Origin: Patescibacteria group bacterium
GTDB taxonomy: Bacteria; Patescibacteriota; JABMPQ01; JAQVVF01
Length of the DNA stretch: 64,000 bases
Assembly: GCA_041662665.1 (NCBI GenBank)
Contig: JBAZSC010000001.1
Location: forward strand, 513,511-577,510
Reading direction: 5' to 3'
Shown: positions 424 through 33,777 of the stretch, one piece after another
How positions within the stretch are numbered: position 1 is the stretch's first letter
Layout: each line of letters starts with the position of its first letter
Notes under the pieces: model-generated
What the model was told of the DNA's origin: nothing
What the model saw: the letters and a program-made list of their open reading frames with translations, nothing else
Databases searched by the model: none
Program-made: the position numbers and the translations under genes

Positions 424-452
424 TTGACAAGATTTTTAGATTGTGCTAATCT
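424..452 (+). promoter_or_regulatory. sigma70-like promoter: TTGACA, 17-nt spacer, TAATCT
   Basis: TTGACA at 424-429, 17-nt spacer, TAATCT at 447-452. AT-rich host-like promoter reading into the GC-rich CDS; RBS GAGGAGG precedes the ATG at 531. Confidence 0.5.
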
Positions 453-530
453 ACTAAGTTACAATCCTCAGGTTCTGGAGAGAAAGGCAAGAACACTCAC
501 AACGAGAGAGAAAACGAGGAGGCAAGGGAA

Positions 531-1598
531 ATGAAGCGCACCAACAACATGCTCAAGATCGTGGCGGCGGGTTTCGTGATGTTCATGATGATGTTCAACT
601 TCAACCCCTTCTACAACTACTTCTACGACGAGGACGAGGGTGTCGCGTACGCGCAGGGCGAGCAGAGCGAGAAGGTGGAGTGGAAGATGTTGGACGCTGG
701 GTTCCAGGGTCAGAACGTGGCCTGGAAGAGCGAGTGGTCCTCCATGGTCATGGATGCGAAGTCGATGGTTGATATGAATCCGCTGAGTTGTGTAGAGGTG
801 AAGGGTTTCGAGGACGTGATTGGCTACGGCCAGTCCAAGCAGGAGCGCCTGGAGATCCGGGTCGCGGGTGGCGAAGAGCCCCTGCGGCAGGATCGGGCGC
901 GCAAGCGGATGATCTACGTGATGAGCAAGATTCGTGAGACTGGGCTGGAAGGTGCACAGGTCAAGGAAGGAATCCCCGTCATCAACGCCCCCAAGGGGCA
1001 GCGTGGCGCGGTGATCACCCTGATCAAGGATTGCATTCCCAAGCCGCCTGTTGCCTGCTGGGATACGAACCAGAACAGCCAGTGTGACTACGAGGAAGAC
1101 GTCAACAAGGACAACAAGTGTGATGTCATCGACTGCAGGGGCGACGATGGATCGAACGGTCGGAACGGCAAGATGGACATCGACTACGACTTCATCGGCC
1201 AGTACATGGTGAGCTTCGAGCGACCTGACTTCTACGGCTTCGAGCTTCGCGTCAACTTCCCGGTCAGCGACATGCTGATGCTGGGACTGGGCGCGGAAGC
1301 AGGGAAGTCGGACGGTGTGGCGGCGGCGGGATTCGAGCTGGCTGGAGAGTACGATCTGAACCGCTACTTCAAGCCTCGTCTCTCCCTGGTCGGTCGGGCG
1401 TTCGAGCTCGACAATCATCTCTACTTCGGTAGGGGTGAGATCGGCGGAGGGCTGGGGTTCGTCGGCGAATTCGCGGAGTTCGACCACCTCTCCCTGATCT
1501 ACGAGCTCCGAGGAGAATGGAAGGGAGAACTGGCGACGGGCAGGCGGGAATGGAAGGACGTGAAGTCCGGGGTCTTCGACCTCGGCCTCCGGTTCTAG
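531..1598 (+). CDS. Secreted beta-rich protein encoded in GC-rich DNA; homolog of CDS 3410..4663
   Basis: N-terminal hydrophobic signal/TM segment. Strong GC3 codon bias. C-terminal alternating hydrophobic strands ending in ...GLRF (aromatic C-terminus, OMP-like). Blocks align with 3410..4663 (EKVEWKMLDAGF/EKIVQKWDLVDAAL; PLSCVEVKGFEDV/PTSCLDIAGIDDV; KGQRGAVITLIKDC/KGIRGVRITLVKGC; YDLNRYFKPRL/YDLVYLKPRI). Confidence 0.6.
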   Translation: MKRTNNMLKIVAAGFVMFMMMFNFNPFYNYFYDEDEGVAYAQGEQSEKVEWKMLDAGFQGQNVAWKSEWSSMVMDAKSMVDMNPLSCVEVKGFEDVIGYGQSKQERLEIRVAGGEEPLRQDRARKRMIYVMSKIRETGLEGAQVKEGIPVINAPKGQRGAVITLIKDCIPKPPVACWDTNQNSQCDYEEDVNKDNKCDVIDCRGDDGSNGRNGKMDIDYDFIGQYMVSFERPDFYGFELRVNFPVSDMLMLGLGAEAGKSDGVAAAGFELAGEYDLNRYFKPRLSLVGRAFELDNHLYFGRGEIGGGLGFVGEFAEFDHLSLIYELRGEWKGELATGRREWKDVKSGVFDLGLRF

Positions 1599-1692
1599 TT
1601 CGAGAAGCTCCGGGCGCCCGACAAGACAACCGGCTGACAAGAAGTCGGGCGCCCGGTTCCGGTGGCAAGAACGGTTCGAGAGGAGGTGTGCG

Positions 1693-2331
1693 ATGAACGC
1701 GTTCGCGAAGTTCCTGTTCTGCCTGCTGATCGGTCTGTGCCTGTCCATCAACTGGAGCTGCGCGCTCCGCGAGGACGCCCAGCCGCCGGAAGACGGTGGC
1801 GAGGGCGAGGGAGAAGGCGAGGGCGAGGGTGAGGGCGAAGGTGAAGGGGAAGGTGAGGGTGAAGGCGAAGGAGAAGGCTGCGAGGGCGAAGGTGAGGGCG
1901 AGGGCGTGGAGTGCCAGGACGGTGAGCTCCGCCCGTGCAACTGCGACAGCGGCGACGTCGGCTACCAGACCTGCAAGGGAAGCTGGGGCGAGTGCGTCTG
2001 CGACTGTGGCGGCGACTGCGAAGGTGAGGGCGAGGGCGGCGAGGGGGAGGGTGAAGGTGAGAGCTGCTCGGTGTGGATCCAGGATGGGATGCTGTGTGGT
2101 GACATCGCTGGTCTGACTTCGTGGACGTTCGGCTGCATGCCTCCGGGTGTGGAGTCGGTCTGCGAGCTGAAGACCTTCGGTGGAACCTGCACGATGATCC
2201 CGACTGGTGTCGACTCCGCGTGGCCCCGTTCGATCAACGGTGTCTGGCTGACAGTCGTGGGCTGCATGGCTCGCGACGGTCTCCAGATCACCAGCGATCC
2301 GAGCGGCGGCCACTACCTGACCCTGCCGTAA
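1693..2331 (+). CDS. Secreted acidic Cys-rich protein with (GE)n low-complexity repeat
   Basis: RBS GAGGAGG upstream and an N-terminal signal peptide. GGCGAG-type hexanucleotide repeat at about 1797-1875 encodes (GE)n. The Cys motif TCKGSWGECVC resembles the C..G..TC...GSWG.C modules of CDS 25243..28200. Confidence 0.5.
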   Translation: MNAFAKFLFCLLIGLCLSINWSCALREDAQPPEDGGEGEGEGEGEGEGEGEGEGEGEGEGEGCEGEGEGEGVECQDGELRPCNCDSGDVGYQTCKGSWGECVCDCGGDCEGEGEGGEGEGEGESCSVWIQDGMLCGDIAGLTSWTFGCMPPGVESVCELKTFGGTCTMIPTGVDSAWPRSINGVWLTVVGCMARDGLQITSDPSGGHYLTLP

Positions 2332-2423
2332 GATCTTCAATCCCGCCCGACAAACGCAAGTGCGTCGGGTGCGGCCTCTCTCAACACAACAACAAGCAAT
2401 TCCTGTACATTCTGTTCCTTTAA

Positions 2424-2451
2424 GAGTTCACTTCAGTGAGCTCTTTTTTTA
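2424..2451 (+). terminator. Intrinsic terminator
   Basis: GAGTTCAC-TTCA-GTGAGCTC hairpin followed by T7. Confidence 0.6.
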
Positions 2452-3287: not shown

Positions 3288-3316
3288 TTGACATAAATAC
3301 AAAATAGTAGTATTCT
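3288..3316 (+). promoter_or_regulatory. sigma70-like promoter: TTGACA, 17-nt spacer, TATTCT
   Basis: Upstream of CDS 3410; RBS AGGGAGGAAAAAGGG precedes the ATG. Confidence 0.5.
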
Positions 3317-3409
3317 CTAATATCCTGTTTAAAGCAAGCAACTTTTATTTATCAATGGAAAAAACTTCGAAGACAGAAACCAGGAGAGCAAAAAGGGAGG
3401 AAAAAGGGA

Positions 3410-4663
3410 ATGAGCAAGTTCAGACGTGCTTTTATTATTGCAGGCATTCTTTTGTTTTCGCAAACAACATATGCTGCAAATACTTGTCCAAATTCTCAAG
3501 TTTCAGCTTGGACTGAAAAAGGATCAGTTTGTGTTACCGCAAATTTGACTGGATCCGTTCAGATTTTTGCGCCAGAGAATTTCTTGATCTATATCAACAA
3601 AGTCAAGGTTTCTGGAATTCAGTACAATCGTGGAAAAGCATATTTCAAGGTTTATTTGATGCCAGGCAAATACGATATTTATGTTGGCACCAACTCAAAC
3701 AATTACAGGCACGAGACAATTCAGATTCATGCCTCAAAGACTGAATCAGTAACTTTCGCATCGCCAAAGTTGATGTACAATGCTCCGAATGTTTCATATC
3801 CAGAAATCAATCCAGAGAAGATTGTGCAGAAATGGGATTTGGTTGATGCTGCTTTGAAGGGAATGGATTGTGTTTATAAGGAATCATGGAAAAAAACTCT
3901 GCAAGAGGCAGCAATTGCTTTGTCAAAGGAAGAGCCAACATCCTGTTTGGATATTGCTGGAATCGATGATGTCAACGATTTTGTCGACTTGGCAACGCCA
4001 GAAGTCAGAGCAGCAGGTAGTCAAGATGCATTTCATACCATCAGAGCGCAAGGTAGAGCAAGCTTGATCATGTATCGTTTTGAAATGGATTTCAATGTTC
4101 CGCCAAAGCGTTTGCGCGAAGGCAAGATTGTGATTAGAGGTGAAAAGGGAATTCGAGGAGTCAGGATTACGCTCGTCAAAGGATGTTTGTCTCAAGCTGT
4201 CAATTCAAATCCTGTTGTAAATGTTCCTGATTCAGTAATGGATGTTTGGAGAGCAGGAGATGATGTTGCTAGGAAAAGGAAGCATTGGGAAGCAATCTAT
4301 GGCGCAAGACTTGTTTTTGGCGCTGGATATAGCACTTACCTTGATAATGTCTTGCAGACTCATCAGATTGAATTCCCAACTGACTTTAATTCAATTCTAG
4401 TAATTCCAGGAATGCGTCTTGGAACATCAGACTATGACAATTTCTATCCTTCTGCGATGTTTTCACTTGGCTATGACCTTGTATATCTCAAGCCAAGGAT
4501 TGGTGGAATTGTTACTGGTCATATCTCAGAAAGAGAAATTGAACGAAGCCTGTTTGCTGGAATTGTGTTTCCTCTGCCTGTCGAAAATTTGACCTTGGGT
4601 TCGCAATATGAGTATGGCAATTTTGGCCAAAACGGTTTTCTTTCCATTGGATTCGATCTTTAA
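3410..4663 (+). CDS. Secreted protein, AT-rich homolog of the GC-rich CDS 531..1598
   Basis: Signal peptide MSKFRRAFIIAGILLFSQTTYA. Strong SD. Several collinear conserved blocks shared with 531..1598. Confidence 0.6.
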   Translation: MSKFRRAFIIAGILLFSQTTYAANTCPNSQVSAWTEKGSVCVTANLTGSVQIFAPENFLIYINKVKVSGIQYNRGKAYFKVYLMPGKYDIYVGTNSNNYRHETIQIHASKTESVTFASPKLMYNAPNVSYPEINPEKIVQKWDLVDAALKGMDCVYKESWKKTLQEAAIALSKEEPTSCLDIAGIDDVNDFVDLATPEVRAAGSQDAFHTIRAQGRASLIMYRFEMDFNVPPKRLREGKIVIRGEKGIRGVRITLVKGCLSQAVNSNPVVNVPDSVMDVWRAGDDVARKRKHWEAIYGARLVFGAGYSTYLDNVLQTHQIEFPTDFNSILVIPGMRLGTSDYDNFYPSAMFSLGYDLVYLKPRIGGIVTGHISEREIERSLFAGIVFPLPVENLTLGSQYEYGNFGQNGFLSIGFDL

Positions 4664-4664
4664 T

Positions 4665-4690
4665 AGCTCACATTAGTTGAGCTTTTTTTA
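4665..4690 (+). terminator. Intrinsic terminator
   Basis: AGCTCA-N7-TGAGCT hairpin followed by T7. Confidence 0.6.
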
Positions 4691-8275: not shown

Positions 8276-8301
8276 GCTTTTTCTAGGGTGCGACTGTCAT
8301 A

Positions 8302-8647: not shown

Positions 8648-8668
8648 CGTATATTTGTATTATATATT

Positions 8669-10096: not shown

Positions 10097-10113
10097 GAAA
10101 TAAATAAAATTTT

Positions 10114-10593: not shown

Positions 10594-10599
10594 GTAGCT

Positions 10600-10623
10600 G
10601 GTTGCAGAGTCCTCTCTGCAACC
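10600..10623. repeat. Perfect hairpin GGTTGCAGAG-TCCT-CTCTGCAACC sharing the 10-mer GAGTCCTCTC with a hairpin inside CDS 6401..7624
   Basis: 10-bp stem, no T-run; just downstream of the rmlC-like stop. Confidence 0.45.
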
Positions 10624-10690
10624 ACATCAACGTATTAAAATAATTTCAGAAAAGATTCTGAAATCAGCAAATTAGTTTTAAATTTTAAAG

Positions 10691-11155: not shown

Positions 11156-11156
11156 T

Positions 11157-11225
11157 GCTAATCTACAAAAATACGAATTCGCATATTCGTTGATTAGCAT
11201 AAATTTATAGATTCGTATCACACTA
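11157..11225 (+). promoter_or_regulatory. Conserved promoter/operator element, copy 2 (GCTAATCTAC...ACGAAT/ATTCGT...GATTAGC nested inverted repeats; TTCGCA, 16-nt spacer, TAAATT; ...ATTCGTATCACACTA-ATG)
   Basis: Aligns with copies at 8620-8668 and 20104-20201. Confidence 0.55.
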
Positions 11226-11636
11226 ATGAAGAAATGCATTTTCTGTCAAATTGCAAAAAAAGAATTGCCGTCAGATATAATTTTTGAAAATAAAAATGTG
11301 ATGGCAATTTTAGATATTATGCCAGTAAATCTAGGCCATGTTTTAGTTATTCCAAAAAAACATTTTGCTACAATGGTCGATGTTCCAGATAAATTATTAC
11401 AGGAAATGATTGTGGTTTCCAAAAAAGTTGGCAAAGCAATTATGAAAGGTCTGAAAGTAAAAGGTTTTAATTTAAGTACAAGCAATGGTAGAGTTGCTGG
11501 ACAAAAAATTGATCACGTCCATTTTCATCTTATTCCAAGATTTGCAAATGATGGTTTAAAATTATGGCCACAAAGACAAGGATATAGAGCAACTGAAGCT
11601 GAAAAAATTGTTAAAAAAATTAAGAGCAAACTTTAG
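11226..11636 (+). CDS. HIT-family (histidine triad) nucleotide hydrolase/transferase
   Basis: HVHFHLIPR histidine-triad motif. Confidence 0.8.
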   Translation: MKKCIFCQIAKKELPSDIIFENKNVMAILDIMPVNLGHVLVIPKKHFATMVDVPDKLLQEMIVVSKKVGKAIMKGLKVKGFNLSTSNGRVAGQKIDHVHFHLIPRFANDGLKLWPQRQGYRATEAEKIVKKIKSKL

Positions 11637-17812: not shown

Positions 17813-17817
17813 TTCAC

Positions 17818-17846
17818 GTAGCGACAGGGCACTGCCCTGTCGCTAC
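17818..17846. promoter_or_regulatory. Second copy of the 29-bp perfect palindrome (central base C), 9 nt upstream of the epimerase start
   Basis: GTAGCGACAGGGCA-C-TGCCCTGTCGCTAC; the reverse complement of the copy at 10068-10096. Confidence 0.6.
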
Positions 17847-17855
17847 CAAAACATT

Positions 17856-20104: not shown

Positions 20105-20201
20105 TACAAATCTACGAATTTTATGCTAATCTACGAAAATACGAATGCGCCGATTCGCATATTTGTAGATTAGCATATATTCGTAAATTCGTATCACACT
20201 T
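20104..20201 (+). promoter_or_regulatory. Conserved promoter/operator element, copy 3 (GCTAATCTAC-N...-GTAGATTAGC inverted repeat; TTCGCA, 16-nt spacer, TATATT; ...ATTCGTATCACACTT-ATG)
   Basis: Longest copy. Contains a GCGCCG insertion and a duplicated ATTCGTA segment relative to copy 2. Confidence 0.55.
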
Positions 20202-21635: not shown

Positions 21636-22058
21636 TTATTTTAAATCATTTTGACTATTATCTAACAACAAATAAGATATTAGCCATATTAAAACACCAG
21701 AAAGTATTGAAATTATAATACTTAAAACAATTCCCAAAGACATAATTTTTACAAAAATTAAAATTGCAGCAATTAATCCTAAGAAAAAAGCAAGTATCGA
21801 AAATTTCCAAGAATTTTTTTCTTGATTTTCTGTAACTAATTTATCATCATTGTCTTTAATAAGAATTAACAATATTCCAGAGATAATAACAATTGCAAGT
21901 ATATAATTCAAATTGATAAAATTACTAACAAAATTATCAAATATCTGATCAATCAAAAAGAAAAATAAATAGCCAATCAAAAAAATTCCAAATATTTGTT
22001 GAAAAATAATATTTAATATATCTTTATAATTTTTTTGCCCAGACAAATTTTTTTCCAT
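21636..22058 (-). CDS. Small integral membrane protein (about 4 TM)
   Basis: Hydrophobic segments only; no recognisable family. Confidence 0.45.
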   Translation of the reverse strand: MEKNLSGQKNYKDILNIIFQQIFGIFLIGYLFFFLIDQIFDNFVSNFINLNYILAIVIISGILLILIKDNDDKLVTENQEKNSWKFSILAFFLGLIAAILIFVKIMSLGIVLSIIISILSGVLIWLISYLLLDNSQNDLK

Positions 22059-22095: not shown

Positions 22096-22135
22096 GTCCG
22101 CATATTCCGCGTAAGTTCCGCGTATTTCCGCGCAA
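22096..22135. repeat. Four tandem 10-bp direct repeats (..TTCCGCGTA..) in the promoter region of the minus-strand gene 21636..22058
   Basis: GTCCGCATAT TCCGCGTAAG TTCCGCGTAT TTCCGCGCAA; helical-turn periodicity. Confidence 0.6.
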
Positions 22136-23830: not shown

Positions 23831-23978
23831 ATATTAAAAGTATACCATATATTTTACATCAATAATATAAAATTGAAAACTTGACAAGTGGATAATCTTT
23901 TGTTACGCTATTTTGAAGCAAATCTGTGCCGAAGTACCGAAAAACAACCCGTTTCCGAGAGAAGAGGAGGAGAAAAAG

Positions 23979-25004
23979 ATGAGAATCCTGAACTTTCTAG
24001 TATTTTGTGGAGTTGCTTGTTTTTCATCGACTGCTTATACTCAAGAAGAATCCGAAAGCAAGTCGGATATTGCTATTGTTTTGATGTCTGAAGAAACTCA
24101 TGATCAGAGAATGGTAGATGATGCTGTTGAAATGATTATTGCCAAATTTTCAAATGAAAAGATCCAGTCTTCTGGCAAAGAAATGTTTGGCAGTGATTCT
24201 GATGAACAGATCAAAACTTGTCTGAAAGACAATTCTTGTGTACAAAAAAAAGCTGTGGAAAAACATGTTTCCCGAGTATTTTATGGAACTTTGGCTAGTG
24301 ACAGAAGAGTTGAAAATGTTGTAGTTATCACTCCTGGCAAGAGATACAATAAGATCAAGGATGTTGTTCCAGTAGAGAAGAAAACTCTGACTATTAGACT
24401 GACTATGTTTGATGCAGTCAACAACAAGGTTGAAATGTCATGGGTGAGCAAAAAGATTGAACCAAGCAAACTCGCTTCTGAAGTTCTGACTGACATTGCT
24501 TCCGAAGCTGTTCGTATCTACAAGGCAAGTCCACTGACCTGGCCAGAAACAAAAAAGCCAAATACTGAAGTCAAGGTTGAAATTGTAAATGTCGATCCTG
24601 TTTCAGAACCAGCCAAGCCAGTTGTCGAAGAAGTGCAGGAAAAGCCAATCGTTCTGCTGGATCCTGAAGTGAGCAATTTGGATTGGCATTTCTGGACGAG
24701 CGTTGGCGGTGCAAGTGTCGGTGTAATCTTGATTTCTGCAGGCAGTTACTACGGTCTCAAGTCAAGCAATGCTAGCGACAATTATGATGCAACCAACATT
24801 CAGACCCAGGCAGAAAGCTTTAAAGATGAAGCAGAATCTGCTGGATCAACTGCTAACATTATGTTTGCTTCTGGTGGAGTTCTGATTGCAGGCAGTGCAG
24901 CTCTTTATGTTCTTGATCAATTCGGTATTCTCGATGCCAATGAATCACCTCAGGCAGTTTTCGTGCCAAAAGACGGCATGTTCTGTTTGAACCTTTCGTT
25001 CTAA
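23979..25004 (+). CDS. Secreted/membrane-anchored hypothetical protein
   Basis: Strong SD (GAGGAGGAG), signal peptide MRILNFLVFCGVACFSS, C-terminal hydrophobic segments. The ATG at 23979 is preferred over the ORF-track start at 23913. Confidence 0.55.
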   Translation: MRILNFLVFCGVACFSSTAYTQEESESKSDIAIVLMSEETHDQRMVDDAVEMIIAKFSNEKIQSSGKEMFGSDSDEQIKTCLKDNSCVQKKAVEKHVSRVFYGTLASDRRVENVVVITPGKRYNKIKDVVPVEKKTLTIRLTMFDAVNNKVEMSWVSKKIEPSKLASEVLTDIASEAVRIYKASPLTWPETKKPNTEVKVEIVNVDPVSEPAKPVVEEVQEKPIVLLDPEVSNLDWHFWTSVGGASVGVILISAGSYYGLKSSNASDNYDATNIQTQAESFKDEAESAGSTANIMFASGGVLIAGSAALYVLDQFGILDANESPQAVFVPKDGMFCLNLSF

Positions 25005-25030
25005 ACGCTATTTTTGGCGTTTTTTTATTG
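25003..25030 (+). terminator. Intrinsic terminator
   Basis: AAACGC-N8-GCGTTT hairpin followed by a T-run. Confidence 0.45.
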
Positions 25031-25242
25031 CCTGAAATCCTATATTTTACGTTCAGCTTAAATATTATATTTGAAAATAATAATGCTTCTAGGCTCAAAA
25101 ATTGACAAAATTATACAAAATATCCATAATAAGCCATTTTCTCTTGCCAAAATTTTATGATTATGCTATTATAATATGAACAGAAAACCAGGAAAGGTCG
25201 GTTACAGGACCGAACCTTCACATCAAGAGAGGAGGAAGAGAG

Positions 25243-28200
25243 ATGAGACAAACAGCATTAATGTTTTTGTTGTCCTTGTATTTTGTTGGTTGTATTGCAG
25301 AGTTGGCACCTGCTGATGAAAAGAATGGAAAGAATCTTTGTGATGAAAATGCACGTTGCTCTGATGGCTATACTTGTGTTTGCAACATGAATAATCATTC
25401 CAAGATTTGCGTGAAGAATCCGAATGCTGAAATGATTTTGGCAAACAAGTCTACTGTCTGTGAAGAGACTATGTCTGACACCGGACCCGATGCTGAAGCT
25501 GACGCCGAAGTTGGAACAAGCGCTGATATCGACGCTGATTCTAACGCTGAAGCGGACGCTGAAGTCGGAACGCCTGATGAAGATTCGACGACTGATACAG
25601 ATGCCAACGCTTCTACCGATGTCGAGCCTGATGAAGGCAACGATGTTGGTAATGACGCTCAGCCTGATGTCTCGCCTGACAATGGAACCGATCTCGGTTC
25701 TGATGTCGGTGAAGATGTTCCTTGTATTCCCGCAACCGAAATCTGTGATGGCGTTGACAATGACTGCGATAGCTATACTGACGAAGATTTCAACAATCTG
25801 AATCAGTCCTGTTCTGTCGGACTCGGTTTGTGTGAGAACGAAGGCGTTTACGTTTGTAGTACCGATAGAAGCACAACTGTTTGTAATGTTGCAGCTTTTC
25901 AAGCTTATCCTGAAGAATGTGATGACATGGACAACGACTGCGATGGCCAAACTGACGAAGATTTGGTTGGCTGTTGCGACGTTGACGCTGTTCAGGAATG
26001 CGGATCTGATGTTGGGGAATGTGTGAAGGGCGAGATGACTTGTCAGGAAGATGGCAGTTGGGGCGACTGTGAAAACGCTGTTGGTCCGACTGTTGATCTT
26101 TGCGACAGTCTTGACAATGACTGTGATGGCGCAACTGACGAGGATTTTCTGAATCGAGGGATGGAATGCCAGATTGGTCAAGGCAACTGTCTTTCTAATG
26201 GCAATTATGCTTGTACTGAAGATATGTTTGGAACTTTCTGTGCAGCTCTGATCATCCAGCCGTCCAATGAGGCTTGCGATCAGCAGGATAATGACTGCGA
26301 TGGCGCAACTGATGAGGACTTGGTTGGATGTTGCGAGCCTAACGATCAGGTCGAATGCGGATCCGCTGTCGGCGAATGCCGTAAGGGTCACAAGACTTGT
26401 TCGATTGATGGTGTGTGGAGCGAATGTCTTGAAGAAGTGAAGCCAATGGCTGAACTTTGTGATGGCAAGGATAACAACTGCGACGGTCAGACAGATGAAA
26501 CCTTTGCTAATCTGAACAGCGAATGTCAGATTGGGCGTGGTGAATGTCTGTCGATTGGTCGCATGACTTGCGGTGTTGATCAGCAGTCAACGTCTTGTAA
26601 TGCAGATATCCTCACCGGCAACGATGAGATCTGTGATAACAAAGATAATGACTGCGATGGCGATGTTGACGAAAATCTGCTGCGTGAATGTGGCAGTGAC
26701 GTCGGTGAATGTGAGATCGGTATCCAATCTTGTTTTGCTGGTGGCTGGCTTGCCTGCGAAGGTGAGATTCAGTCGAGCGACGAGATTTGTGATAACCTTG
26801 ATAACAATTGCGACGGTAATACAGATGAAGGTTTCAACATCAACGATCAATGCTTTGAAGGTCTTGGCGAATGCCAGGCTGAAGGCGTGATCGTTTGTGT
26901 TGATGAGAATATGAGTGCTTGCAATGCAGTTGTCGGTCAGCAGTCGGAAGAGACATGCGATGGCTTGGACAACGATTGCGATGGCAATACAGATGAAGAG
27001 TTGGAAAATTGTTGTATTCCTGATACCATTTCCGAATGCGGTATTGACACTGGCGAATGTGTGAAGGGAACTTCCACTTGCCAGGCAGACCGTACTTGGG
27101 GTTGGTGTTTGGATGCAACTGGACCATCGGATGAAATCTGCGATGGATTGGATAACAACTGCGATGGCGAAACAGACGAAGGTTTGACTGGTTGTTGCTC
27201 ACCTTCCGTTTCTCGCAACTGCGGATCTGATGTGGGCGAATGCTCTCATGGGACGCAGATTTGCTGGGAAAGCCGTGAGTGGGGCGAATGCCAGAATCAG
27301 ACTTTGCCTGCAAATGAAATCTGCGATGGACTTGACAATGACTGCGATGGCCAGACAGACAATGGATTCGACCTCATGGCTGAAGCCAATAACTGCGGCC
27401 AATGCAATTATGTTTGTGGCAGTCAGGGGACAGTGAGTACTACTTGCGAAGCAGGTGAGTGCGTTCTGACGTGCAGCCGCTTCCGAGTTGATTTGAACAC
27501 TGATCCGACTGACGGCTGTGAATGTGAAGTCACCAATTGCGGTGTGGAAATCTGCGATCAGGTGGACAACGATTGTGATGGTGCAATTGACGAAGACTGT
27601 GATTCTCTCGTCATGTACCTGAGCTTCGATGGACACATGAATGATGGATCTACCAATGCCAACAACGCTCTCAACCATGGCGCCACTTACACTGCTGATG
27701 CAGTTTGTGGCCAGGCAGCATCGTTCGACGGAGTCGACGATTATGCCGAAGTGGCTGATAGCGTGAGCATGGATTCGATTGTGAATGAGTTTACGATTTG
27801 CGTTTCAGCAAATGTGACTGATTACGAAAGAGGTGATGTTGTATTCTCAAAGTTTAGGCTGCAACCAGCACTTGGAATCGAATGGAACGATGTAACTATG
27901 GAAAACAACTGGACATTCTTTTTAAACCGAGTAAAGCTTGCTCAGGGAAGAACTGTTAATGTGAATCAGTGGATTACTTTCTGTGGGAAATTCAAGCAAG
28001 GAGTTTTTACTGCATACATTGATGGCGAACAAATTTGGCAAGGTAATGCTCAAAACCCAGTTGGCGGTATTACCTATATTGGGTCTAACGATATGCCACC
28101 AGCCAAGAACAGCCACACAAAGATTGATGAGACTACATTTTATAACGTTGCACTTTCCGATGAGGAAATCCAGCACTACTTTGAAATCATGAAACGCTAG
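25243..28200 (+). CDS. Large secreted (lipo)protein with 11 MopE-like/TSP3-like Cys-rich Ca-binding repeats (CDGxDNDCDGxTDE) and a C-terminal LamG/concanavalin-A-like domain
   Basis: Strong SD, signal peptide with ...YFVGC. N-terminal acidic DAEADAEVGT repeats. Eleven copies of C-D-x-x-D-N-D-C-D-G-x-x-D-E alternate with two types of Cys-knot-like spacers. C-terminal LSFDG...DGSTNANNALNHGAT...ASFDGVDDYAEV is the LamG_3 signature. GC about 45-50%. Confidence 0.7.
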   Translation: MRQTALMFLLSLYFVGCIAELAPADEKNGKNLCDENARCSDGYTCVCNMNNHSKICVKNPNAEMILANKSTVCEETMSDTGPDAEADAEVGTSADIDADSNAEADAEVGTPDEDSTTDTDANASTDVEPDEGNDVGNDAQPDVSPDNGTDLGSDVGEDVPCIPATEICDGVDNDCDSYTDEDFNNLNQSCSVGLGLCENEGVYVCSTDRSTTVCNVAAFQAYPEECDDMDNDCDGQTDEDLVGCCDVDAVQECGSDVGECVKGEMTCQEDGSWGDCENAVGPTVDLCDSLDNDCDGATDEDFLNRGMECQIGQGNCLSNGNYACTEDMFGTFCAALIIQPSNEACDQQDNDCDGATDEDLVGCCEPNDQVECGSAVGECRKGHKTCSIDGVWSECLEEVKPMAELCDGKDNNCDGQTDETFANLNSECQIGRGECLSIGRMTCGVDQQSTSCNADILTGNDEICDNKDNDCDGDVDENLLRECGSDVGECEIGIQSCFAGGWLACEGEIQSSDEICDNLDNNCDGNTDEGFNINDQCFEGLGECQAEGVIVCVDENMSACNAVVGQQSEETCDGLDNDCDGNTDEELENCCIPDTISECGIDTGECVKGTSTCQADRTWGWCLDATGPSDEICDGLDNNCDGETDEGLTGCCSPSVSRNCGSDVGECSHGTQICWESREWGECQNQTLPANEICDGLDNDCDGQTDNGFDLMAEANNCGQCNYVCGSQGTVSTTCEAGECVLTCSRFRVDLNTDPTDGCECEVTNCGVEICDQVDNDCDGAIDEDCDSLVMYLSFDGHMNDGSTNANNALNHGATYTADAVCGQAASFDGVDDYAEVADSVSMDSIVNEFTICVSANVTDYERGDVVFSKFRLQPALGIEWNDVTMENNWTFFLNRVKLAQGRTVNVNQWITFCGKFKQGVFTAYIDGEQIWQGNAQNPVGGITYIGSNDMPPAKNSHTKIDETTFYNVALSDEEIQHYFEIMKR

Positions 28201-28210
28201 CACTTTTTTT

Positions 28211-28237
28211 ACCACAGATTTTTCTGTGGTTTTTTTG
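28211..28237 (+). terminator. Intrinsic terminator
   Basis: ACCACAGA-TTTT-TCTGTGGT hairpin followed by T6. Confidence 0.7.
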
Positions 28238-28240
28238 TAC

Positions 28241-28275
28241 AAAATAAAAACTTCCTTGCATATTTAGCAAGGAAG
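28241..28275 (-). terminator. Intrinsic terminator for the minus-strand gene 28295..29029
   Basis: CTTCCTTGC-N7-GCAAGGAAG hairpin, T-run on the minus strand. Confidence 0.65.
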
Positions 28276-28294
28276 TAAAACAAATAATATTAAA

Positions 28295-29029
28295 TTAATA
28301 AACAGTTAGATAAAATCCTGTAGGATCTGAACCTGCACCAGTATCATCATAAAAATCAATCGTAACCGATGTTGTACCAACAGACCTAATAACAGCAAAT
28401 AAACTTGTACCAGAAATAAGAGGAGTAACATTAAAATAATTAGAAGAAATATTTGTTGTTGCTCCAAAATCAACTGTATATCTTCCAGCTGTTGAATTAT
28501 AGCTAGGCGTTATTGTTGTTCCATTAGCTAGTTTGTTAAATTGGGTGGCTGCTGTTGGAGTAGAGGGAGTCGAAGTGTTAATATACGCTGCCGCCTTTAC
28601 AACTCCATCCATAGAAAAATCCATTTTATCACCAGTTACAGAAGCACTTTGCAAATTACCAGAAGTTATAGTTTCGCTAGCAATTTTATTTCCAGTTACA
28701 GCGCCTTCGCCAATTTTTCCATTTGTAACAACACCAGTTCCAAGATTATCAGCACCAACAATATTGCTACCTTGCAAAATTCCGCCAACTTTGACATTTC
28801 CTTGAACTTTCAAATGATCCTTGATATAAACTTTTTTGCCTTTGACAGGATTTCTGATAAAACCTTTTACTAACAATTGTCCTTTATTGCTGTTTGTTCC
28901 AACAGTCAATGTTTTTTTTACTAGACCAGTATCAATGGTCCAGACAGATGCTGCGCTTGCAAAAGCAGTTGTAAACAACAACGCGCTTCCTAAAACAAGC
29001 GACAACCCTAAAAATCTTTTTTGTTTCAT
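28295..29029 (-). CDS. Secreted Gly/Thr/Val-rich repeat protein (beta-helix or fiber-like)
   Basis: Signal peptide, repeated G.V.TG.KI..G motifs, 244 aa. Confidence 0.5.
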   Translation of the reverse strand: MKQKRFLGLSLVLGSALLFTTAFASAASVWTIDTGLVKKTLTVGTNSNKGQLLVKGFIRNPVKGKKVYIKDHLKVQGNVKVGGILQGSNIVGADNLGTGVVTNGKIGEGAVTGNKIASETITSGNLQSASVTGDKMDFSMDGVVKAAAYINTSTPSTPTAATQFNKLANGTTITPSYNSTAGRYTVDFGATTNISSNYFNVTPLISGTSLFAVIRSVGTTSVTIDFYDDTGAGSDPTGFYLTVY

Positions 29030-29080
29030 TTGTTTGTATTAATTATTTTTTAAATTTATAAGTAATTTTAATTAATTTTT

Positions 29081-29131
29081 ATGCGTAAATTCTGCGTTTT
29101 CTGCGTTCGATTCTGCGTTAGTCTGCGTTAT
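29081..29131. repeat. Five tandem direct repeats of about 10 bp (..TCTGCGTT..) in the promoter region of the minus-strand gene 28295..29029
   Basis: ATGCGTAAAT TCTGCGTTTT CTGCGTTCGAT TCTGCGTTAG TCTGCGTTAT. Confidence 0.6.
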
Positions 29132-29200
29132 AACAAATTAAATATTACGAATTGTGCTTAATTTTTCAGCCTTTGTAATTAATTAGCACTTCTTATCAAT

Positions 29201-29785
29201 TTATGATTTAAGCTCAATAGTTGGAAAAGCTTTTATTTTACTAATCTTTTCATACTCGATATCACTTAGAATTCGATGACCTTTTAAAGTATCAACTAAA
29301 ACAATTATTTTTTCATCTAACTTTCTAATAATCAAAATAACATCACCCTTTGCAGAATCAATTTTATTGATCAAAGATTCTTCAACATGATCAATTTTAT
29401 TTGTTAATTCTTTTTTAATACCATCAACTTTAATATTTAATATTTCTAAATCTTCTTTTGTTGCGGTCTCTTCAAAACCTTTTGCAACCATTAATGCAAG
29501 TTCTGAAATTTTTTTATCGAATTTTTTATCAAGTCTTTTTTCTTGTTGATTAAAACCAATATCCATTTTTTTATCAAGTCTTTTTTCTTGTTGATTAAAA
29601 CCAATATCCATTTTTTTATCAAGTCTTTTTTCTTGTTCTTTAAAACCACTATCCATTTTTACGGATAATTTTTCAAACTTTGTAGATATCTTTTCAACCT
29701 TTGTAGATATCTTTTCAACTTTTGTGCCAAGCTTTTCAATCAATTTGGCCAAATCATTAATTGTAATTTCTTTTTTTATTTTCAT
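29201..29785 (-). CDS. Coiled-coil protein with perfect in-frame tandem DNA repeats (45 bp in 3 copies; 21 bp in 3 copies)
   Basis: Two perfect copies plus one variant of a 45-bp unit at about 29522-29655 encode FNQQEKRLDKKMDIG. A 21-bp unit at about 29668-29740 encodes KVEKIST. The internal Met (MKIKKE) is preferred as start. Confidence 0.5.
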   Translation of the reverse strand: MKIKKEITINDLAKLIEKLGTKVEKISTKVEKISTKFEKLSVKMDSGFKEQEKRLDKKMDIGFNQQEKRLDKKMDIGFNQQEKRLDKKFDKKISELALMVAKGFEETATKEDLEILNIKVDGIKKELTNKIDHVEESLINKIDSAKGDVILIIRKLDEKIIVLVDTLKGHRILSDIEYEKISKIKAFPTIELKS

Positions 29786-29863
29786 GAATTCAAAAATTTT
29801 ATCACCAAAATTATAACACATTTTTTCTAAGTCAACAAATATACTGTTGATAATAAATCAAAG

Positions 29864-29892
29864 TTGACAAATATCAATTTTAAAAGTATTAT
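29864..29892 (+). promoter_or_regulatory. sigma70-like promoter: TTGACA, 17-nt spacer, TATTAT
   Basis: Upstream of the lipoprotein gene 29935; SD ACAGGAGGGAAG. Confidence 0.55.
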
Positions 29893-29934
29893 ATATAAAT
29901 CGTACCTTGCCAAAAAGAGAACAGGAGGGAAGAG

Positions 29935-30864
29935 ATGAAAAGGGAAATGACATTAGTTATTTTATTGTCAATTTTGCTTGCATCTTGTATGAGCTATCCA
30001 GAAAGAATCAAGGCTTACACAACCGGCAATCCTGGAAAGCCATTTAGAGTCTTAGGCAGTGCTGAAGCAACATATATTCCCCAAGGATATTCCAAAAAAG
30101 TTGCGCCTGGTCTGAAAAGCTATGAAAGAAATTATGAAAAATATGGCGACACAAAAACTCATGTCAGCAGCTATAATTTGGAAGCTCCGCCTGATTTGAA
30201 GCCTGATTATCAAGAAGCAAATCGACTGATGCTCATCATGGCCTATCGTCAATATGGATCAATTCTTGCTGCAGTTGTTAATGTTCGTTATTCAACTTCC
30301 AAAGAATATTATGCAGAAGGTGGTAAGGTTGATACCAATTTACAACGAATGCGCGTGAAAGCTTCTGGCACAGCTGTCTGTTTTATTGATCGGCAAAACA
30401 AATGCATTGCCTATGATGATGATTCTGTAATTGAAGAAGAGTCTACAGCAGTTGCTTCAATTCCAAAAGAAAAGCCAGTTGCAATGAATGATTCACCAGG
30501 AGAAAAGTTGCTTGTTTCTCGAAATATTTTAGGAAGTGATTTGCTATCAACCAAAACTGATACTGATACAAAGAGACATTCAAAAGGATTCAAGAAAGGA
30601 TATTTTTACGATTATGATTTATTTTCGATTAGAATTATGGAATTCAAAACTCCCAAAATTGCAAAAAGTTATCTTGAATCTCTGGGTAAAAAGCCAAATG
30701 CCAAAAGAGTCAACGAAGGATTCTATTGGCTTAGTCAACAAGATTCTGAACAAACTTCGTACCTAGTATATCTGCTTGATCCGACAAAAGTTGTTGCTAT
30801 TTATCCTGCTGATAAGAGCTTAAGTACAGCTGCAAAAATTTCAGCTGAGTTGGAAAAGAAATAA
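29935..30864 (+). CDS. Lipoprotein, hypothetical
   Basis: Signal peptide with lipobox LLASC; strong SD. Confidence 0.55.
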   Translation: MKREMTLVILLSILLASCMSYPERIKAYTTGNPGKPFRVLGSAEATYIPQGYSKKVAPGLKSYERNYEKYGDTKTHVSSYNLEAPPDLKPDYQEANRLMLIMAYRQYGSILAAVVNVRYSTSKEYYAEGGKVDTNLQRMRVKASGTAVCFIDRQNKCIAYDDDSVIEEESTAVASIPKEKPVAMNDSPGEKLLVSRNILGSDLLSTKTDTDTKRHSKGFKKGYFYDYDLFSIRIMEFKTPKIAKSYLESLGKKPNAKRVNEGFYWLSQQDSEQTSYLVYLLDPTKVVAIYPADKSLSTAAKISAELEKK

Positions 30865-30883
30865 TGTTCTATTTTTAGTCTCA

Positions 30884-30909
30884 ATCGAAGAAAGTCTTCG
30901 ATTTTTTAT
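30884..30909 (+). terminator. Intrinsic terminator
   Basis: ATCGAAGA-AAG-TCTTCGAT hairpin followed by T6. Confidence 0.7.
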
Positions 30910-30913
30910 TTTA

Positions 30914-30943
30914 AAATAAAAAAAACCGAAGAAAATCTTCGGT
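30914..30943 (-). terminator. Intrinsic terminator (minus strand)
   Basis: ACCGAAGA-AAA-TCTTCGGT hairpin with a T8 run on the minus strand. Confidence 0.7.
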
Positions 30944-30949
30944 AGAATC

Positions 30950-32053
30950 TTACTCCTTTTCGAGCTCTTGATTGATATATCCAGAGCCATCTGAAGCTTC
31001 AAAAACACGAGGAAGACTATTCCAATCCCAATCATAAGTAAATGTCTTAAAGCCAGGCTTTTTGATTTCAATTTTAAATGGATAACTAGGCAAATTATCA
31101 AGAGTTAATTCAGCAGAATCACCAGGTTTCACAGATTTCAAAACGCCACGTCTTTCACCACTTATAAATACTTCTGAATCTTCTTGCCCGATAAAATCAA
31201 TCCTTCGCACTTTCTCAACTTTCTTACTTCTTGTAACATACTTTTTCTGATCACTATCATAATAATTAAAATATTTCGTTACAGAACCACCACCTGAACT
31301 ATCCGTTGTGACGAGCATTGGAAAATTGCCATCCGTATTTGGCTGAACGTCCTTGATTGATGGCGCGCTTTCGAAAATCATTTTCGGTGATTCATCGACA
31401 ATTGACCACAGATTAGAATAACAATTGCCAGATCTTGCATGGCAAGTATCTGAAACTAGCACTTCATCAATTCCATCACTATTCAAATCTTTCACTTCAG
31501 AGATTCCGCAATTATCCATGCTGTTTTCTTCATCACAATTATGATGTTTGCAATAGCAAGAAGCTAATGCAGTTTCCTTCAGTGCAGTTTCTAGATTCGT
31601 CTTTCTAATTGCTTTGAAATCTTCTGATTCTGGACAATTGGCATCAACTTCAACTGAAATGTTCCGCAGTTTGAAGCCTTCATCGAAAATTTCATAAGAC
31701 AATGTCAAACATTGCTGATAAATGAAAACACCAGGTCTGCGACCAGCAACGCCATCTTCAAAATTACCTGCAAAAGTAAGGAGAGAATTTCTAGACTCTT
31801 TGGGCGTGCATGTATTATTCACAGAAATTCTCACTTTGATTTCAGCTTTTTCATCACGCGTCAACTTTTCAATCTGTTCGGGATTTGTCAAAGTAAAAGT
31901 GCAATTCAAGTTTCCAGATGAAAATCTTCTAGCCAAATTAATATAATACAAATTCACATCCTGCTCAATTTGTTTTTCTTCAACTTCTTTTTTGCATGAC
32001 ACTAGAGAAGAAATCGCAAGAATCGCCAGCAAAAGTGCTAGTGTTTTTCTCAT
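30950..32053 (-). CDS. Lipoprotein, hypothetical (Cys-containing extracytoplasmic protein)
   Basis: SD GAGGAGGAGG, then MRKTLALLLAILAISSLVSC lipobox. Start at 32053 is preferred over the track's 32116. Confidence 0.55.
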   Translation of the reverse strand: MRKTLALLLAILAISSLVSCKKEVEEKQIEQDVNLYYINLARRFSSGNLNCTFTLTNPEQIEKLTRDEKAEIKVRISVNNTCTPKESRNSLLTFAGNFEDGVAGRRPGVFIYQQCLTLSYEIFDEGFKLRNISVEVDANCPESEDFKAIRKTNLETALKETALASCYCKHHNCDEENSMDNCGISEVKDLNSDGIDEVLVSDTCHARSGNCYSNLWSIVDESPKMIFESAPSIKDVQPNTDGNFPMLVTTDSSGGGSVTKYFNYYDSDQKKYVTRSKKVEKVRRIDFIGQEDSEVFISGERRGVLKSVKPGDSAELTLDNLPSYPFKIEIKKPGFKTFTYDWDWNSLPRVFEASDGSGYINQELEKE

Positions 32054-32142
32054 GACTTTTTCCTCCTCCTCTCTCGTTTTTGGGAGTAAAATTTTAAAAG
32101 AACAATACCATAACATACGCTAAACTTTAAATTTTGTCAAAT

Positions 32143-32167
32143 AAAAAAAACCGAAATAAATTCGGTT
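32143..32167 (-). terminator. Intrinsic terminator (minus strand)
   Basis: AACCGAA-ATAAA-TTCGGTT hairpin with a T8 run on the minus strand. Confidence 0.7.
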
Positions 32168-32181
32168 AAAAGAGCAAAAAA

Positions 32182-33777
32182 TTACAAACAAAGTCTTAGA
32201 GGCATTCTCCCATAAGGTTGATCAAAGCTTTTGCAAGTTGTGCCAACAGGACATTCACTAAACAAATTGCAATTATCACAAGTTACTCCCAGATCTTGAC
32301 CACGATCTTTTTCCTCAAAACAAGCTTCGGTGCAAGTTCCTACAAGACATGGCAAATCAAAATCACAATCACTGTTTTGCGAACAAGGTTTGCCAATTCC
32401 ATGATTTGGCAAATCCATTTCATGAGTTGCTTTTTTCACAGCTTCCAAGACATTGATTCTTCTCCAATAATGAAAAACACCGTCAGGATAAGTAACTAGA
32501 ATTTCTGTTGCTGATTCATACATAATTCTTCTAACTTCATCAGGATTCAATTCTGGTCTTATCTCTTTCAGTAAACCAGCAAGTCCAGCAACCATTGGCG
32601 AGGCAAAAGAAGTACCTTCTCCAATTGAATAAGAATTATCAAGACCCAACAATCTTAAATCCTTTCCAGGTGCAGCCAATGTCAAAATATTAGGATCATC
32701 ATTTTGAGAAAAATTTGAAAAAGTAGTTCTATTCTCAAGACCATATTGGTCATAATAAGTTGCACCGACAGAGATAACTTCAGGATAAGCAGAAGGATAA
32801 TGGTTTGTCGCATCAATGAAAGTATTGCCTGCTGAACAAACAATGACAACGCCATGTTTGTTTGCATACACTACTGCCAAGTTCAGCATGCCCAAAGAAA
32901 AATTATTTGCTGATAAAGTATTTCCGCTATAATTTATTACCGATGCGCCTCTTTTTGTTGCCATTACAATTGCCGAAACCAGCGTTCTTATTAAACTATG
33001 GTTTTCGCCAGTATCAGGAAAAATCTTGTATGCCAGAAAATCAGCATTATATGCAATTCCATTAATTCCTGTGCCATTATTTTGAGCAAAGATAATTCCA
33101 GCAGTTGCAGTTCCATGCCCATCAGAATAATAGACATTGTTATCAGTATCAGCAAAATCATATTTTTCAACATCTAAGCCAGCAAATTCTTGATGATTCA
33201 AGTCAAAGCCATTATCCAAATCCGCAATTTTGATAGGATGAAGAGTAATACCATTTTGTTCAATGAAGTCATAAGCTTGTGCTAATTTGATTTTCTCAAA
33301 TCCCCACAGTCCAGCGTCATCTTTGCCTTCAATATCCAAACTTTCAAGCTGTACAGCATAATTCTTTTCTGCCAATTCGACATTATAATTAGCGAGCAAT
33401 GTATCAATCTTTTGTTCAATTTCTTCAATGGAATTGCAATCAAACTTTAATTCATAAATATTTAAATCAGGAATGAATGCCGATATTTTTGCATCAACAA
33501 TTCCAAGAACAATTTCAATGCCAGAAATGCTCACATCATCCTTGAATTTGACAAGCAACGTGTTAGTTGAAGCAATATTTCCATCAGAATCAACAACATT
33601 TAAATTTATATCAATTGGTGTCAGATAAAAATCTTCAACTTGCCAAATTACACTTTCGCAATAACTATCATCACAAAGCTTCTTTGCTGTTTCAGTGCCA
33701 GTGAATTTACTTTCTTCATCTGAATCAGTACAAGCAATCATTAAAAAGGCTAGGCAGAGCAAACTGGTGTTTCGCAT
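32182..33777 (-). CDS. Subtilisin-like serine peptidase (S8 family) lipoprotein with Cys-rich C-terminal extension
   Basis: Lipobox FLMIAC. Catalytic HGTATAGII (His) and GTSFASPMVAG (Ser) motifs. C-terminal region with 14 Cys. Confidence 0.8.
   Translation of the reverse strand: MRNTSLLCLAFLMIACTDSDEESKFTGTETAKKLCDDSYCESVIWQVEDFYLTPIDINLNVVDSDGNIASTNTLLVKFKDDVSISGIEIVLGIVDAKISAFIPDLNIYELKFDCNSIEEIEQKIDTLLANYNVELAEKNYAVQLESLDIEGKDDAGLWGFEKIKLAQAYDFIEQNGITLHPIKIADLDNGFDLNHQEFAGLDVEKYDFADTDNNVYYSDGHGTATAGIIFAQNNGTGINGIAYNADFLAYKIFPDTGENHSLIRTLVSAIVMATKRGASVINYSGNTLSANNFSLGMLNLAVVYANKHGVVIVCSAGNTFIDATNHYPSAYPEVISVGATYYDQYGLENRTTFSNFSQNDDPNILTLAAPGKDLRLLGLDNSYSIGEGTSFASPMVAGLAGLLKEIRPELNPDEVRRIMYESATEILVTYPDGVFHYWRRINVLEAVKKATHEMDLPNHGIGKPCSQNSDCDFDLPCLVGTCTEACFEEKDRGQDLGVTCDNCNLFSECPVGTTCKSFDQPYGRMPLRLCL

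Follow-up and report, generated by a model that had tools for sequence, protein, structure and literature searches.

A conserved, fast-evolving block of putative surface-protein genes with Shine-Dalgarno sequences in the envelope-glycan locus of a Patescibacteria genome

Does a run of secreted-protein genes that departs in composition from the envelope-glycan cluster around it mark a recent insertion, or does it belong to the locus? The question is raised by positions 23979 to 33777 (the block) of a 64-kb stretch of DNA (the window) from a metagenome-assembled genome (MAG) of the Patescibacteria, or candidate phyla radiation (CPR), a group widely held to be epibiotic. Genome and window alike have ~28% GC, and the window carries chiefly envelope-glycan genes (Wzy, GT4, GT2, rml-type genes, ugd, a UXS-like epimerase, and a flippase). 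The original prediction, made from the sequence of the window, took the block for an accessory island interrupting the glycan cluster. According to our analysis this does not hold, since the synteny test against relatives gave the same block in place in four genomes: the block is core to its clade and is not a recent island. The loci compared are the window (W); L004, L005, and L011, relatives' loci with the block; L006 and L007, relatives' loci with the family of the window's gene at 531; and L014 and L015, contigs of other Patescibacteria. The proteins encoded at 531-1598 and by the S8 gene of the block are identical to NCBI entries of a Patescibacteria MAG. The closest genomes found were two Patescibacteria MAGs, with 79 to 80% identity in a 543-amino-acid (aa) protein encoded by one of the ordinary, here called native, genes.

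In W, L004, L005, and L011, the block shows the same position, gene order, GC bump, and Shine-Dalgarno sequences (SDs), with its genes coming after the 543-aa gene and the bump in the MopE gene of the relatives reaching 0.50. Because place and signature are the same in every relative found, a recent insertion is not tenable. Flanking native orthologs are 73 to 95% identical, and their 4-fold degenerate sites keep only 0.20 to 0.28 of the shared G/C-versus-A/T state, which is near saturation. L011 retains the block but has another set of glycan genes, of ABC-transporter type, to the right of the S8 gene, so that the secretome block is the stable part. Its content varies to some extent: L005 has two additional SD-led lipoprotein genes, and L004 and L011 have one additional native-style fn3 gene. 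Searches with Pfam, NCBIfam, and PHROG, together with inspection of the edges, revealed no integrase, transposase, flanking direct repeats, or edge tRNA at the block. Both block junctions are reproduced in an independent Logan assembly and, since they are present there and in three other genomes, are not assembly artifacts. A prophage or mobile element was considered as well and rejected, since PHROG gives a generic S8 protease family (1.7e-54) and weak matches to families of unknown function, with no integrase in the block.

While the block is fixed in place, its coding regions diverge rapidly. Orthologs of its SD-led genes are 31 to 64% identical, and their nonsynonymous divergence (dN) is 0.22 to 0.66, against 0.11 to 0.29 for the two native-style block genes and 0.03 to 0.13 for the native flanking genes; the dN/dS ratio was not used as evidence of positive selection because synonymous divergence (dS) is saturated. 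Promoters and untranslated leaders of the block, on the other hand, show 75 to 83% mean column identity across relatives, with long invariant runs, which indicates that they are selected and used in this lineage. The stretch of ~40 nt around the promoter at 23881-23909 is invariant in W, L004, and L005, and the region upstream of the MopE gene is 83% identical across three genomes.

The compositional signal resides in a discrete class of genes and not in a uniform island. Among the 54 window genes counted, eight carry a GGAGG-type SD located 7 to 12 nt 5' of the ATG, with a core of at least 5 nt, namely, those starting at 531, 1693, 3410, 23979, 25243, and 29935 and, on the minus strand, at 32053 and 33777; five of them are among the seven genes of the block, and three lie at 531-4663. 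The GGAGG core is conserved in orthologs. In none of the remaining 46 could we detect an SD core of even 4 nt when scanning positions -21 to -4. The mean GC content at third codon positions (GC3) is 0.436 in the eight SD-led genes and 0.209 (standard deviation, 0.031) in the 46 SD-less ones (Mann-Whitney p = 2e-5), so the compositional difference of the original prediction stands on per-gene calculation. Codon use differs accordingly, with TTA and ATA avoided and AAG and CAG preferred relative to native genes. All eight SD-led genes encode an N-terminal signal peptide and four a lipobox, the latter identified by the regular expression [LVI][ASTVI][GAS]C, not by LipoP or SignalP.

Each transcription unit of the class has its own signals. 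The spacer is 17 nt in all seven promoters and TTGACA is exact in six, the general form being TTGACA-N17-TAnnnT, close to the sigma-70 consensus; the gene at 1693 comes after that at 531 in one unit. Leaders are purine-rich and 42 to 112 nt long, and they fold no better than shuffled sequences, with the exception of a small hairpin 5' of the MopE gene (z = -2.3); Rfam revealed no riboswitch or structured leader. Each unit closes with an intrinsic terminator (hairpin and T-run). Native genes carry no SD, and their leaders are apparently very short. Given this discreteness in promoter, leader, SD, and codon use, the suggestion of a distinct evolutionary origin or expression level for these genes is a reasonable one. 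Literature searches found no published description of such a gene class in CPR. A 169-aa open reading frame (ORF) at 7730-8239 (minus strand; GC, 0.375), with a TTGCAA-N17-CATAAT promoter, a leader of ~60 nt, and GAAGGA 5' of its second Met, has no signal peptide and no Pfam match; perhaps it belongs to the long-leader class as a weak member whose product is not secreted.

In several respects the block is less uniform than had been claimed. The strong SDs attributed to all its genes are found as GGAGG in five of seven and are missing from the G/T/V-rich and coiled-coil genes, both fully native in style; a signal peptide or lipobox, likewise assigned to every product, is present in six of seven, four with a lipobox Cys, the coiled-coil protein having neither. 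GC content is indeed above background in the SD-led genes, although just two genes reach the stated 40 to 50% (0.41 and 0.47), and in 1-kb windows it is 0.41 to 0.48 at 24 to 28 kb, 0.36 at 30 to 33 kb, 0.25 at 29 to 30 kb, and 0.25 to 0.35 in the flanks. As for the strong bidirectional terminators, the region does hold 14 terminator-like sites against 7.4 +/- 2.4 in shuffled sequences, but the genes are separated by convergent one-way pairs instead. The features are collected in Table 1.

Table 1. Features of the block and of the SD-led genes at the left end of the window
Feature	Position	Strand	GC	GC3	Remarks
Cassette	424..2445	+			Promoter 424-452, 78-nt leader, two SD-led genes, 3' hairpin and terminator 2422-2445
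531 gene	531-1598	+	0.59	0.82	SD-led
1693 gene	1693-2331	+	0.66	0.79	SD-led; GE-repeat, Cys-rich lipoprotein-like product
3410 gene unit	3288..4683	+	0.40	0.34	SD-led; promoter 3288-3316, 93-nt leader, coding sequence 3410-4663, terminator 4665-4683
Promoter of anchored-protein gene	23881..23909	+			TTGACA-N17-TACGCT; 69 nt from ATG
Anchored-protein gene	23979..25004	+	0.41	0.35	SD-led; 341 aa
Terminator of anchored-protein gene	25003-25022	+			
Two tandem promoters, MopE gene	25102..25172	+			TTGACA-17-CATAAT; TTGCCA-17-TATTAT with TG
MopE-LamG lipoprotein gene	25243..28200	+	0.47	0.43	SD-led; 985 aa; lipobox FVGC, C17
Convergent one-way terminator pair	28211-28230; 28276-28250	+; -			MopE gene (+); G/T/V-rich gene (-)
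G/T/V-rich repeat protein gene	28295..29029	-	0.36	0.19	Native style, no SD; secreted; 244 aa
Coiled-coil protein gene	29201..29785	-	0.24	0.14	Native style, no SD; small; no signal peptide
Promoter of 309-aa lipoprotein gene	29864..29892	+			TTGACA-17-TATTAT; 42 nt from ATG; conserved in L004, L005
309-aa lipoprotein gene	29935..30864	+	0.36	0.25	SD-led; orphan; lipobox LASC, C18
Convergent one-way terminator pair	30883-30903; 30943-30925	+; -			309-aa lipoprotein gene (+); 367-aa lipoprotein gene (-)
367-aa lipoprotein gene	30950..32053	-	0.36	0.28	SD-led; lipobox LVSC, C20; promoter 32140-32112
S8 subtilase lipoprotein gene	32182..33777	-	0.355	0.23	SD-led; 531 aa; lipobox MIAC, C16; promoter 33871-33843; terminator 32167-32149

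After its signal peptide, the first protein of the block, whose start at 23979 had been placed correctly, has an acidic N-domain, then a P/E/V linker, and toward the C-terminus two hydrophobic segments; it has no Pfam, NCBIfam, or PHROG match. Its gene is the fastest evolving of the block, with orthologs 31 to 36% identical against 80% for the adjacent native gene. The MopE-LamG protein contains 11 CDxxDNDCD repeats of the MopE type, 87 Cys residues, and a C-terminal LamG_3 (concanavalin-like) domain, and it matches PF11617 at 4.8e-41 (139 bits against a cut-off of 27, in 8 stretches) and PF13385 at 7.5e-10; it may bind metal (Cu or Ca), as its family name suggests. Its orthologs are 63 to 64% identical and have a GC3 of 0.48. 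The S8 protein, which matches PF00082 at 8.7e-42 over residues 182 to 425, has a fervidolysin-like propeptide, a Cys-rich C-terminal tail, and an intact catalytic triad of D188 (DLDNG), H221 (HGT), and S390 (GTSFASP), from which activity is predicted. Orthologs of the 309-aa and 367-aa lipoproteins, the latter with a weak XAC2610-like segment, are 53 to 54% and 54% identical, respectively, and keep the SD; the true start of the 367-aa lipoprotein gene is 32053, after the SD, the longest ORF being 30950-32116. At 4-fold sites the 309-aa lipoprotein gene, the one among the 309-aa, 367-aa, and S8 genes covered by this test, is native-like (0.20 to 0.26), so that its raised GC stems mainly from amino-acid composition. 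The notion of a surface-interaction toolkit, with adhesion and proteolysis, fits this predicted content of a MopE-LamG protein, an S8 lipoprotein, two orphan lipoproteins, and a signal-anchored protein.

The two native-style genes complete the block. The G/T/V-rich protein, with orthologs 61% identical and likewise without an SD, gave no meaningful sequence match in the PDB. The coiled-coil gene does contain the tandem repeats reported for it (45 bp x 3.2 and 21 bp x 3.3), and translation probably begins at M13 (29785), where its orthologs also start, with N-termini "MKTKKEITI...". All five copies of ACGCRGAA in the window form short direct repeats at 22105-22123 and 29090-29118, 5' of two minus-strand genes of native style whose products are membrane or secreted proteins (21636-22058 and 28295-29029).

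The three remaining class members lie at the left end of the window, where GC rises abruptly from 0.28 to 0.63 at 500-2400. The original prediction linked the genes at 531-2331 to the block, and the common style is real, while the "shared Cys motif" is weak, amounting to one BLASTP match (E = 0.004). The product of the 3410 gene is a distant paralog of the 531 protein (BLASTP, 27% identity over 137 aa, E = 8e-15). Cassette orthologs hold a GC3 of 0.73 to 0.83 within contexts of ~30% GC, and the non-coding spacers of the cassette are GC-rich too. Its promoter, 5' untranslated region (UTR), and 3' GC-rich hairpin with terminator show 74 to 79% mean column identity among relatives, and by inspection lineages with closer cassette UTRs also have closer proteins. 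For the 531 protein we found five close homologs, at 45 to 53% identity; the contigs of three of them and the window copy are CPR-like contexts of ~30% GC, with a GT4 gene adjoining in two cases and a Wzy gene in one. An exhaustive profile search retrieved ~60 distant relatives of 340 to 400 aa with the same layout, whose GARP/FYMINK ratio of 2 to 7, against ~0.37 calculated from native-gene composition, points to GC-rich organisms; a metagenome scan with the 531-family profile returned the window's own sequence alone.

An AlphaFold (AF2) model of the 531 protein from a 40-sequence alignment shows an OmpA-like fold over residues 50 to 170 (predicted local distance difference test [pLDDT], 91 to 97), and Foldseek relates this N-domain to the C-domains of OprF, OmpA, and Pal with a probability of 1.0 and template modeling (TM) scores of 0.65 to 0.72. 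Sequence searches did not place it in PF00691, with no Pfam match at E <= 1 and YiaD as the sole hit of the profile against the PDB (E = 0.4). For the C-terminal part, nine strands are predicted at residues 219 to 354 (pLDDT, 61 to 88), and the C-terminus reads ...GLRF; Foldseek matches of this part to transmembrane barrels are at E = 0.03 to 0.2, those to the TMB10 design and to invasin/intimin barrels being at E = 0.03 to 0.05, and one distant homolog matches PF13505 (E = 0.023). The product is thus predicted to combine an OmpA-like domain with a beta-barrel, a diderm type of protein, in a phylum that has been proposed to lack an outer membrane (PMC12102498).

Several further observations concern the surroundings of the cassette. 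Between it and the 3410 gene lies a 165-nt inverted repeat, 86% complementary (2495-2659 and 3069-3233), around a tRNA-Lys(UUU)/tRNA-Leu(UAA) pair, and each arm contains smaller "GAAACTCGGTTTT" palindromes. These tRNAs, confined to 2826-3007, are the only two that Rfam gives, and no rRNA was found in the window or any fetched locus. In L006 the distance from the GC-rich cassette to the Wzy gene is ~500 bp, so that the tRNA segment and the gene at 3410-4663 appear to be missing there. In one relative (L009, 3-902, minus strand, and L010), an rve_3 (IS-type) transposase gene takes the place of GT4, directly 5' of the conserved promoter of a 531/1693-type cassette.

How old the foreign composition could be was assessed with a decay model of two states (G/C and A/T), for which native 4-fold sites served as calibration. 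The GC content at 4-fold sites (GC4) of the MopE gene, 0.38 to 0.47, can be reached neutrally from 0.53 to 0.72 at the split, so the block proper could have ameliorated slowly. The 531 orthologs have a GC4 of 0.72 to 0.77. Even from an ancestor of 100% GC, the neutral ceiling would be 0.53 (upper bound, 0.68) between W and L006 and 0.32 (0.54) between L006 and L007. The 4-fold sites of the family are nearly randomized (identity, 0.38 to 0.46 against an expected 0.29 to 0.34), and the preference for G or C depends on the lineage at constant total GC, with C at 0.46 to 0.56 in L007 and G at 0.38 to 0.45 in the window. The GC content of the 531-2331 cassette must be actively maintained; the maintaining force could be selection acting on the mRNA or the DNA, or else gene conversion biased toward GC, if the cassette is hypervariable and recombines.

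Regarding the source of these genes, the nearest homologs of the MopE-LamG protein outside the clade are named mostly Myxococcota, Myxococcales, Polyangia, and Bradymonadia, with a few other Patescibacteria, the matches being driven by the repeats. The S8 protein has orthologs within the clade only, at 51 to 65% identity, and all other matches are generic (at most 37%). Together with the composition and the predicted fold of the 531 family, these results favor an old import from GC-rich diderm bacteria. For the 531-2331 cassette, repeated import is unlikely, since no close homolog in a GC-rich context was found within a collection of 5.8 billion proteins.

We checked the generality of the class on two MopE-related genes of other Patescibacteria. 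In L014 the native genes (tig, rnhB, and proS) have a GC3 of 0.45 to 0.50 and no SD, and interleaved with them are four genes at a GC3 of 0.79 to 0.83. Besides the MopE-related gene, these comprise three with a GGAGG SD that encode a signal peptide, a lipobox-like Cys being present in two of them. The MopE-related gene (7284-11282) is seemingly split by an in-frame TAG at ~7886, which could be due to a pseudogene, a sequencing error, or read-through. In L015 the class is seen more weakly, with SD-led lipoprotein genes somewhat richer in GC (0.34 to 0.40) than their SD-less neighbors (0.29 to 0.41). Its MopE/LamG gene is adjoined by genes for small proteins with the N-termini "MKTKKPKITLEKL..." and "MSKKKKITLEDL...", which by eye, without scoring, resemble the coiled-coil protein of the block. 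Three adjacent native-style genes of this contig (6259-7946, minus strand) share the string (A/T)AACCTCAAACTT right before the ATG, which in that lineage may serve initiation without an SD.

Elsewhere in the window, a 25-nt motif, ATTCGCATATTYGTWGATTAGCATA, occurs in five copies (0 expected; e.g., 8619-8643, 11154-11201, and 20122-20177), all intergenic, just 5' of native-style genes, and twice as divergent pairs; we regard it as a probable promoter or operator element specific to the lineage. The GC-rich palindrome GTAGCGACAGGGCAsTGCCCTGTCGCTAC at 10050-10113 and 17813-17855, just 5' of the genes at 10114 and 17856, may be a repetitive extragenic palindromic (REP)-like or terminator element. 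Toward the end of the glycan cluster, 54447-56993 and 59347-62856 encode two large membrane-anchored proteins (848 and 1169 aa) without a Pfam match.

The account that we consider probable, with some reserve, is that of a clade-conserved, fast-evolving surface block within an envelope-glycan locus, whose SD-led class combines old import, surface function, and retained signals. The class genes would descend from old imports out of GC-rich diderm bacteria, fixed before the sampled genomes diverged. Their products would form an extracytoplasmic set for adhesion and proteolysis (a stalk of Cys/Asp repeats that carries a lectin-like LamG head, together with a subtilase and lipoproteins), would be located at the cell surface, and would evolve under an arms race. 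Being native and under selection, the promoters would have the genes transcribed in the CPR cell, and SD and leader would persist because the GC-richer mRNAs would be unable to use the AU-rich, SD-independent start of native genes. Several points weigh against this account. The GC3 of the S8 and lipoprotein genes (0.23 to 0.28) is near the native 0.21, so that a need for the SD because of GC fails there, and the functions of the block proteins are predicted from their domains. The GC4 of the 531 family lies above the neutral ceiling, and import followed by amelioration therefore cannot be the whole story. The donor search found no lineage with close homologs for the S8 protein or the 531 family, and the close relatives of the latter are just five, those inspected being in CPR-like contexts. 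Moreover, a published survey reports that no anti-SD motif could be detected for about half of the 16S genes of Parcubacteria (PMC9297842).

Of the alternatives, that of a recent genomic island, i.e., an accessory block put into the glycan cluster by horizontal transfer, could draw on the atypical GC, codon use, and SDs (GC3 of 0.23 to 0.43 in the SD-led block genes), on the splitting of the glycan locus, and on the varying gene content; we deem it very improbable, and refuted for the block as a whole, since site, order, and signature are the same in four genomes near 4-fold saturation, the edges bear no sign of mobility, and in L011 it is the glycan neighbors that differ. A chimera of CPR DNA with that of another organism, produced by assembly or binning, would explain the abrupt GC steps, but native-style and SD-class genes interleave several times and the same junctions recur in the independent Logan assembly, in JGI contigs of other samples, and in NCBI MAGs, which makes it practically negligible. 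More attention is due to the idea, on balance unlikely, that the signature was made and held by selection or local bias within the CPR lineage and was not inherited from a donor: a strong promoter, leader, and SD would let a few surface mRNAs win scarce ribosomes, with GC kept for mRNA stability, for blocking internal SD-independent starts, or by GC-biased gene conversion at a hypervariable, recombining cassette between conserved flanks. The GC4 of the 531 family, stationary at ~0.75 through saturated divergence, the shifting preference for G or C among lineages at a retained total, the conserved flanks around a hyperdivergent coding region, and the recurrence of the class in the unrelated L014 and, more weakly, in L015 all argue for it. 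Yet the preferred codons are the rarest in native genes (AAG, CAG, and CTG at or near 100% against 4 to 19%), the GC-rich spacers of the cassette speak against pure codon selection, and the main reservoir of the protein families is GC-rich bacteria.

It is also conceivable, if quite improbable, that the products act in or on the envelope of a diderm host, e.g., with the 531 protein as a tether in the host outer membrane, or, in the extreme form, that the genes are expressed by host machinery, which would explain why promoter and SD signals are universal and codons GC-rich. An outer-membrane-type barrel with a C-terminal Phe and an OmpA-like, peptidoglycan-binding fold in a phylum proposed to have no outer membrane (PMC12102498), SDs conserved in an otherwise SD-free genome when a Parcubacteria subgroup has no anti-SD motif (PMC9297842), and a GC3 of ~0.8 whatever the native GC would all be in line with it. 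However, the promoters are AT-rich, lineage-specific, and strongly conserved, as for native transcription; the GC of the class spans 0.36 to 0.66, which fits the codon usage of no one host; the class genes are not linked to any transfer apparatus; and the barrel model is of moderate quality with weak Foldseek matches. A bolder reading, which we regard as rather unlikely, is that the class constitutes a second, actively maintained expression regime for host-interface proteins in SD-less, possibly anti-SD-less, Patescibacteria: a consensus promoter, a long leader, and a perfect SD would accompany GC-rich coding sequence kept far from mutational equilibrium. Among the proteins so expressed would be a diderm-type one, OmpA-like with a beta-barrel, for which a monoderm epibiont would have no use except in the outer membrane of its host, tethering its wall to the host membrane.

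Set against known systems, the locus resembles ameliorating horizontally acquired islands (the Lawrence and Ochman 1997 model) in its atypical GC and codons, surface functions, graded foreignness, and domain repertoire of another phylum. It differs in that the block occupies a fixed, syntenic place in each of the four genomes, without mobility genes, and in that 531-2331 is unameliorated despite saturated synonymous divergence, which the model forbids. As in SD-poor genomes (Bacteroidota and the Parcubacteria subgroup without anti-SD; PMC9297842), most genes are SD-free and a few have strong SDs. Here, instead, the SD-led minority is coherent (secreted, GC-richer, with its own promoter and a long leader) and conserved across relatives. 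The SD-led minority of Bacteroidota is not known to be secretome-specific. With hypervariable surface-antigen loci (O-antigen, capsule, and pneumococcal surface-protein alleles), the locus shares conserved flanks (74 to 79% mean column identity) around a divergent product (45 to 53% amino-acid identity), surface-exposed products, and adjacent glycan genes exchanged between relatives, whereas its variable part is strongly GC-rich within an AT-rich genome. The modeled 531 family would share with the tethers OmpM and SlpA the domain order of an OmpA-like fold followed by a C-terminal barrel ending in Phe, inverted relative to OmpA, but it has no sequence-level membership, carries a Cys/Asp-rich linker motif, and comes from a phylum proposed to lack an outer membrane. 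The MopE-LamG protein, finally, has the tandem CDxxDNDCDGxxDE repeats (PF11617, 8 stretches) and the lipoprotein or secreted location of MopE-related proteins of Myxococcota; it differs in length (985 aa against 1200 to 1700 aa for most matches outside the clade) and in its LamG_3 cap, an architecture that recurs mainly among the top matches, including two named Patescibacteria.

CPR make up a large share of bacterial diversity, and their host attachment and translation start are hardly known. For compositional "islands" in general, the case advises caution, since they should not be called recent transfers before synteny has been checked. The GC3 of ~0.8 of 531-2331 in genomes of ~30% GC is incompatible with simple amelioration and speaks for strong selection or GC-biased conversion acting in bacteria. 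Within one small genome, two styles of translation initiation are split cleanly between SD-led secreted genes and all others, and the locus supplies a concrete, conserved, and fast-evolving set of candidate host-interface proteins.

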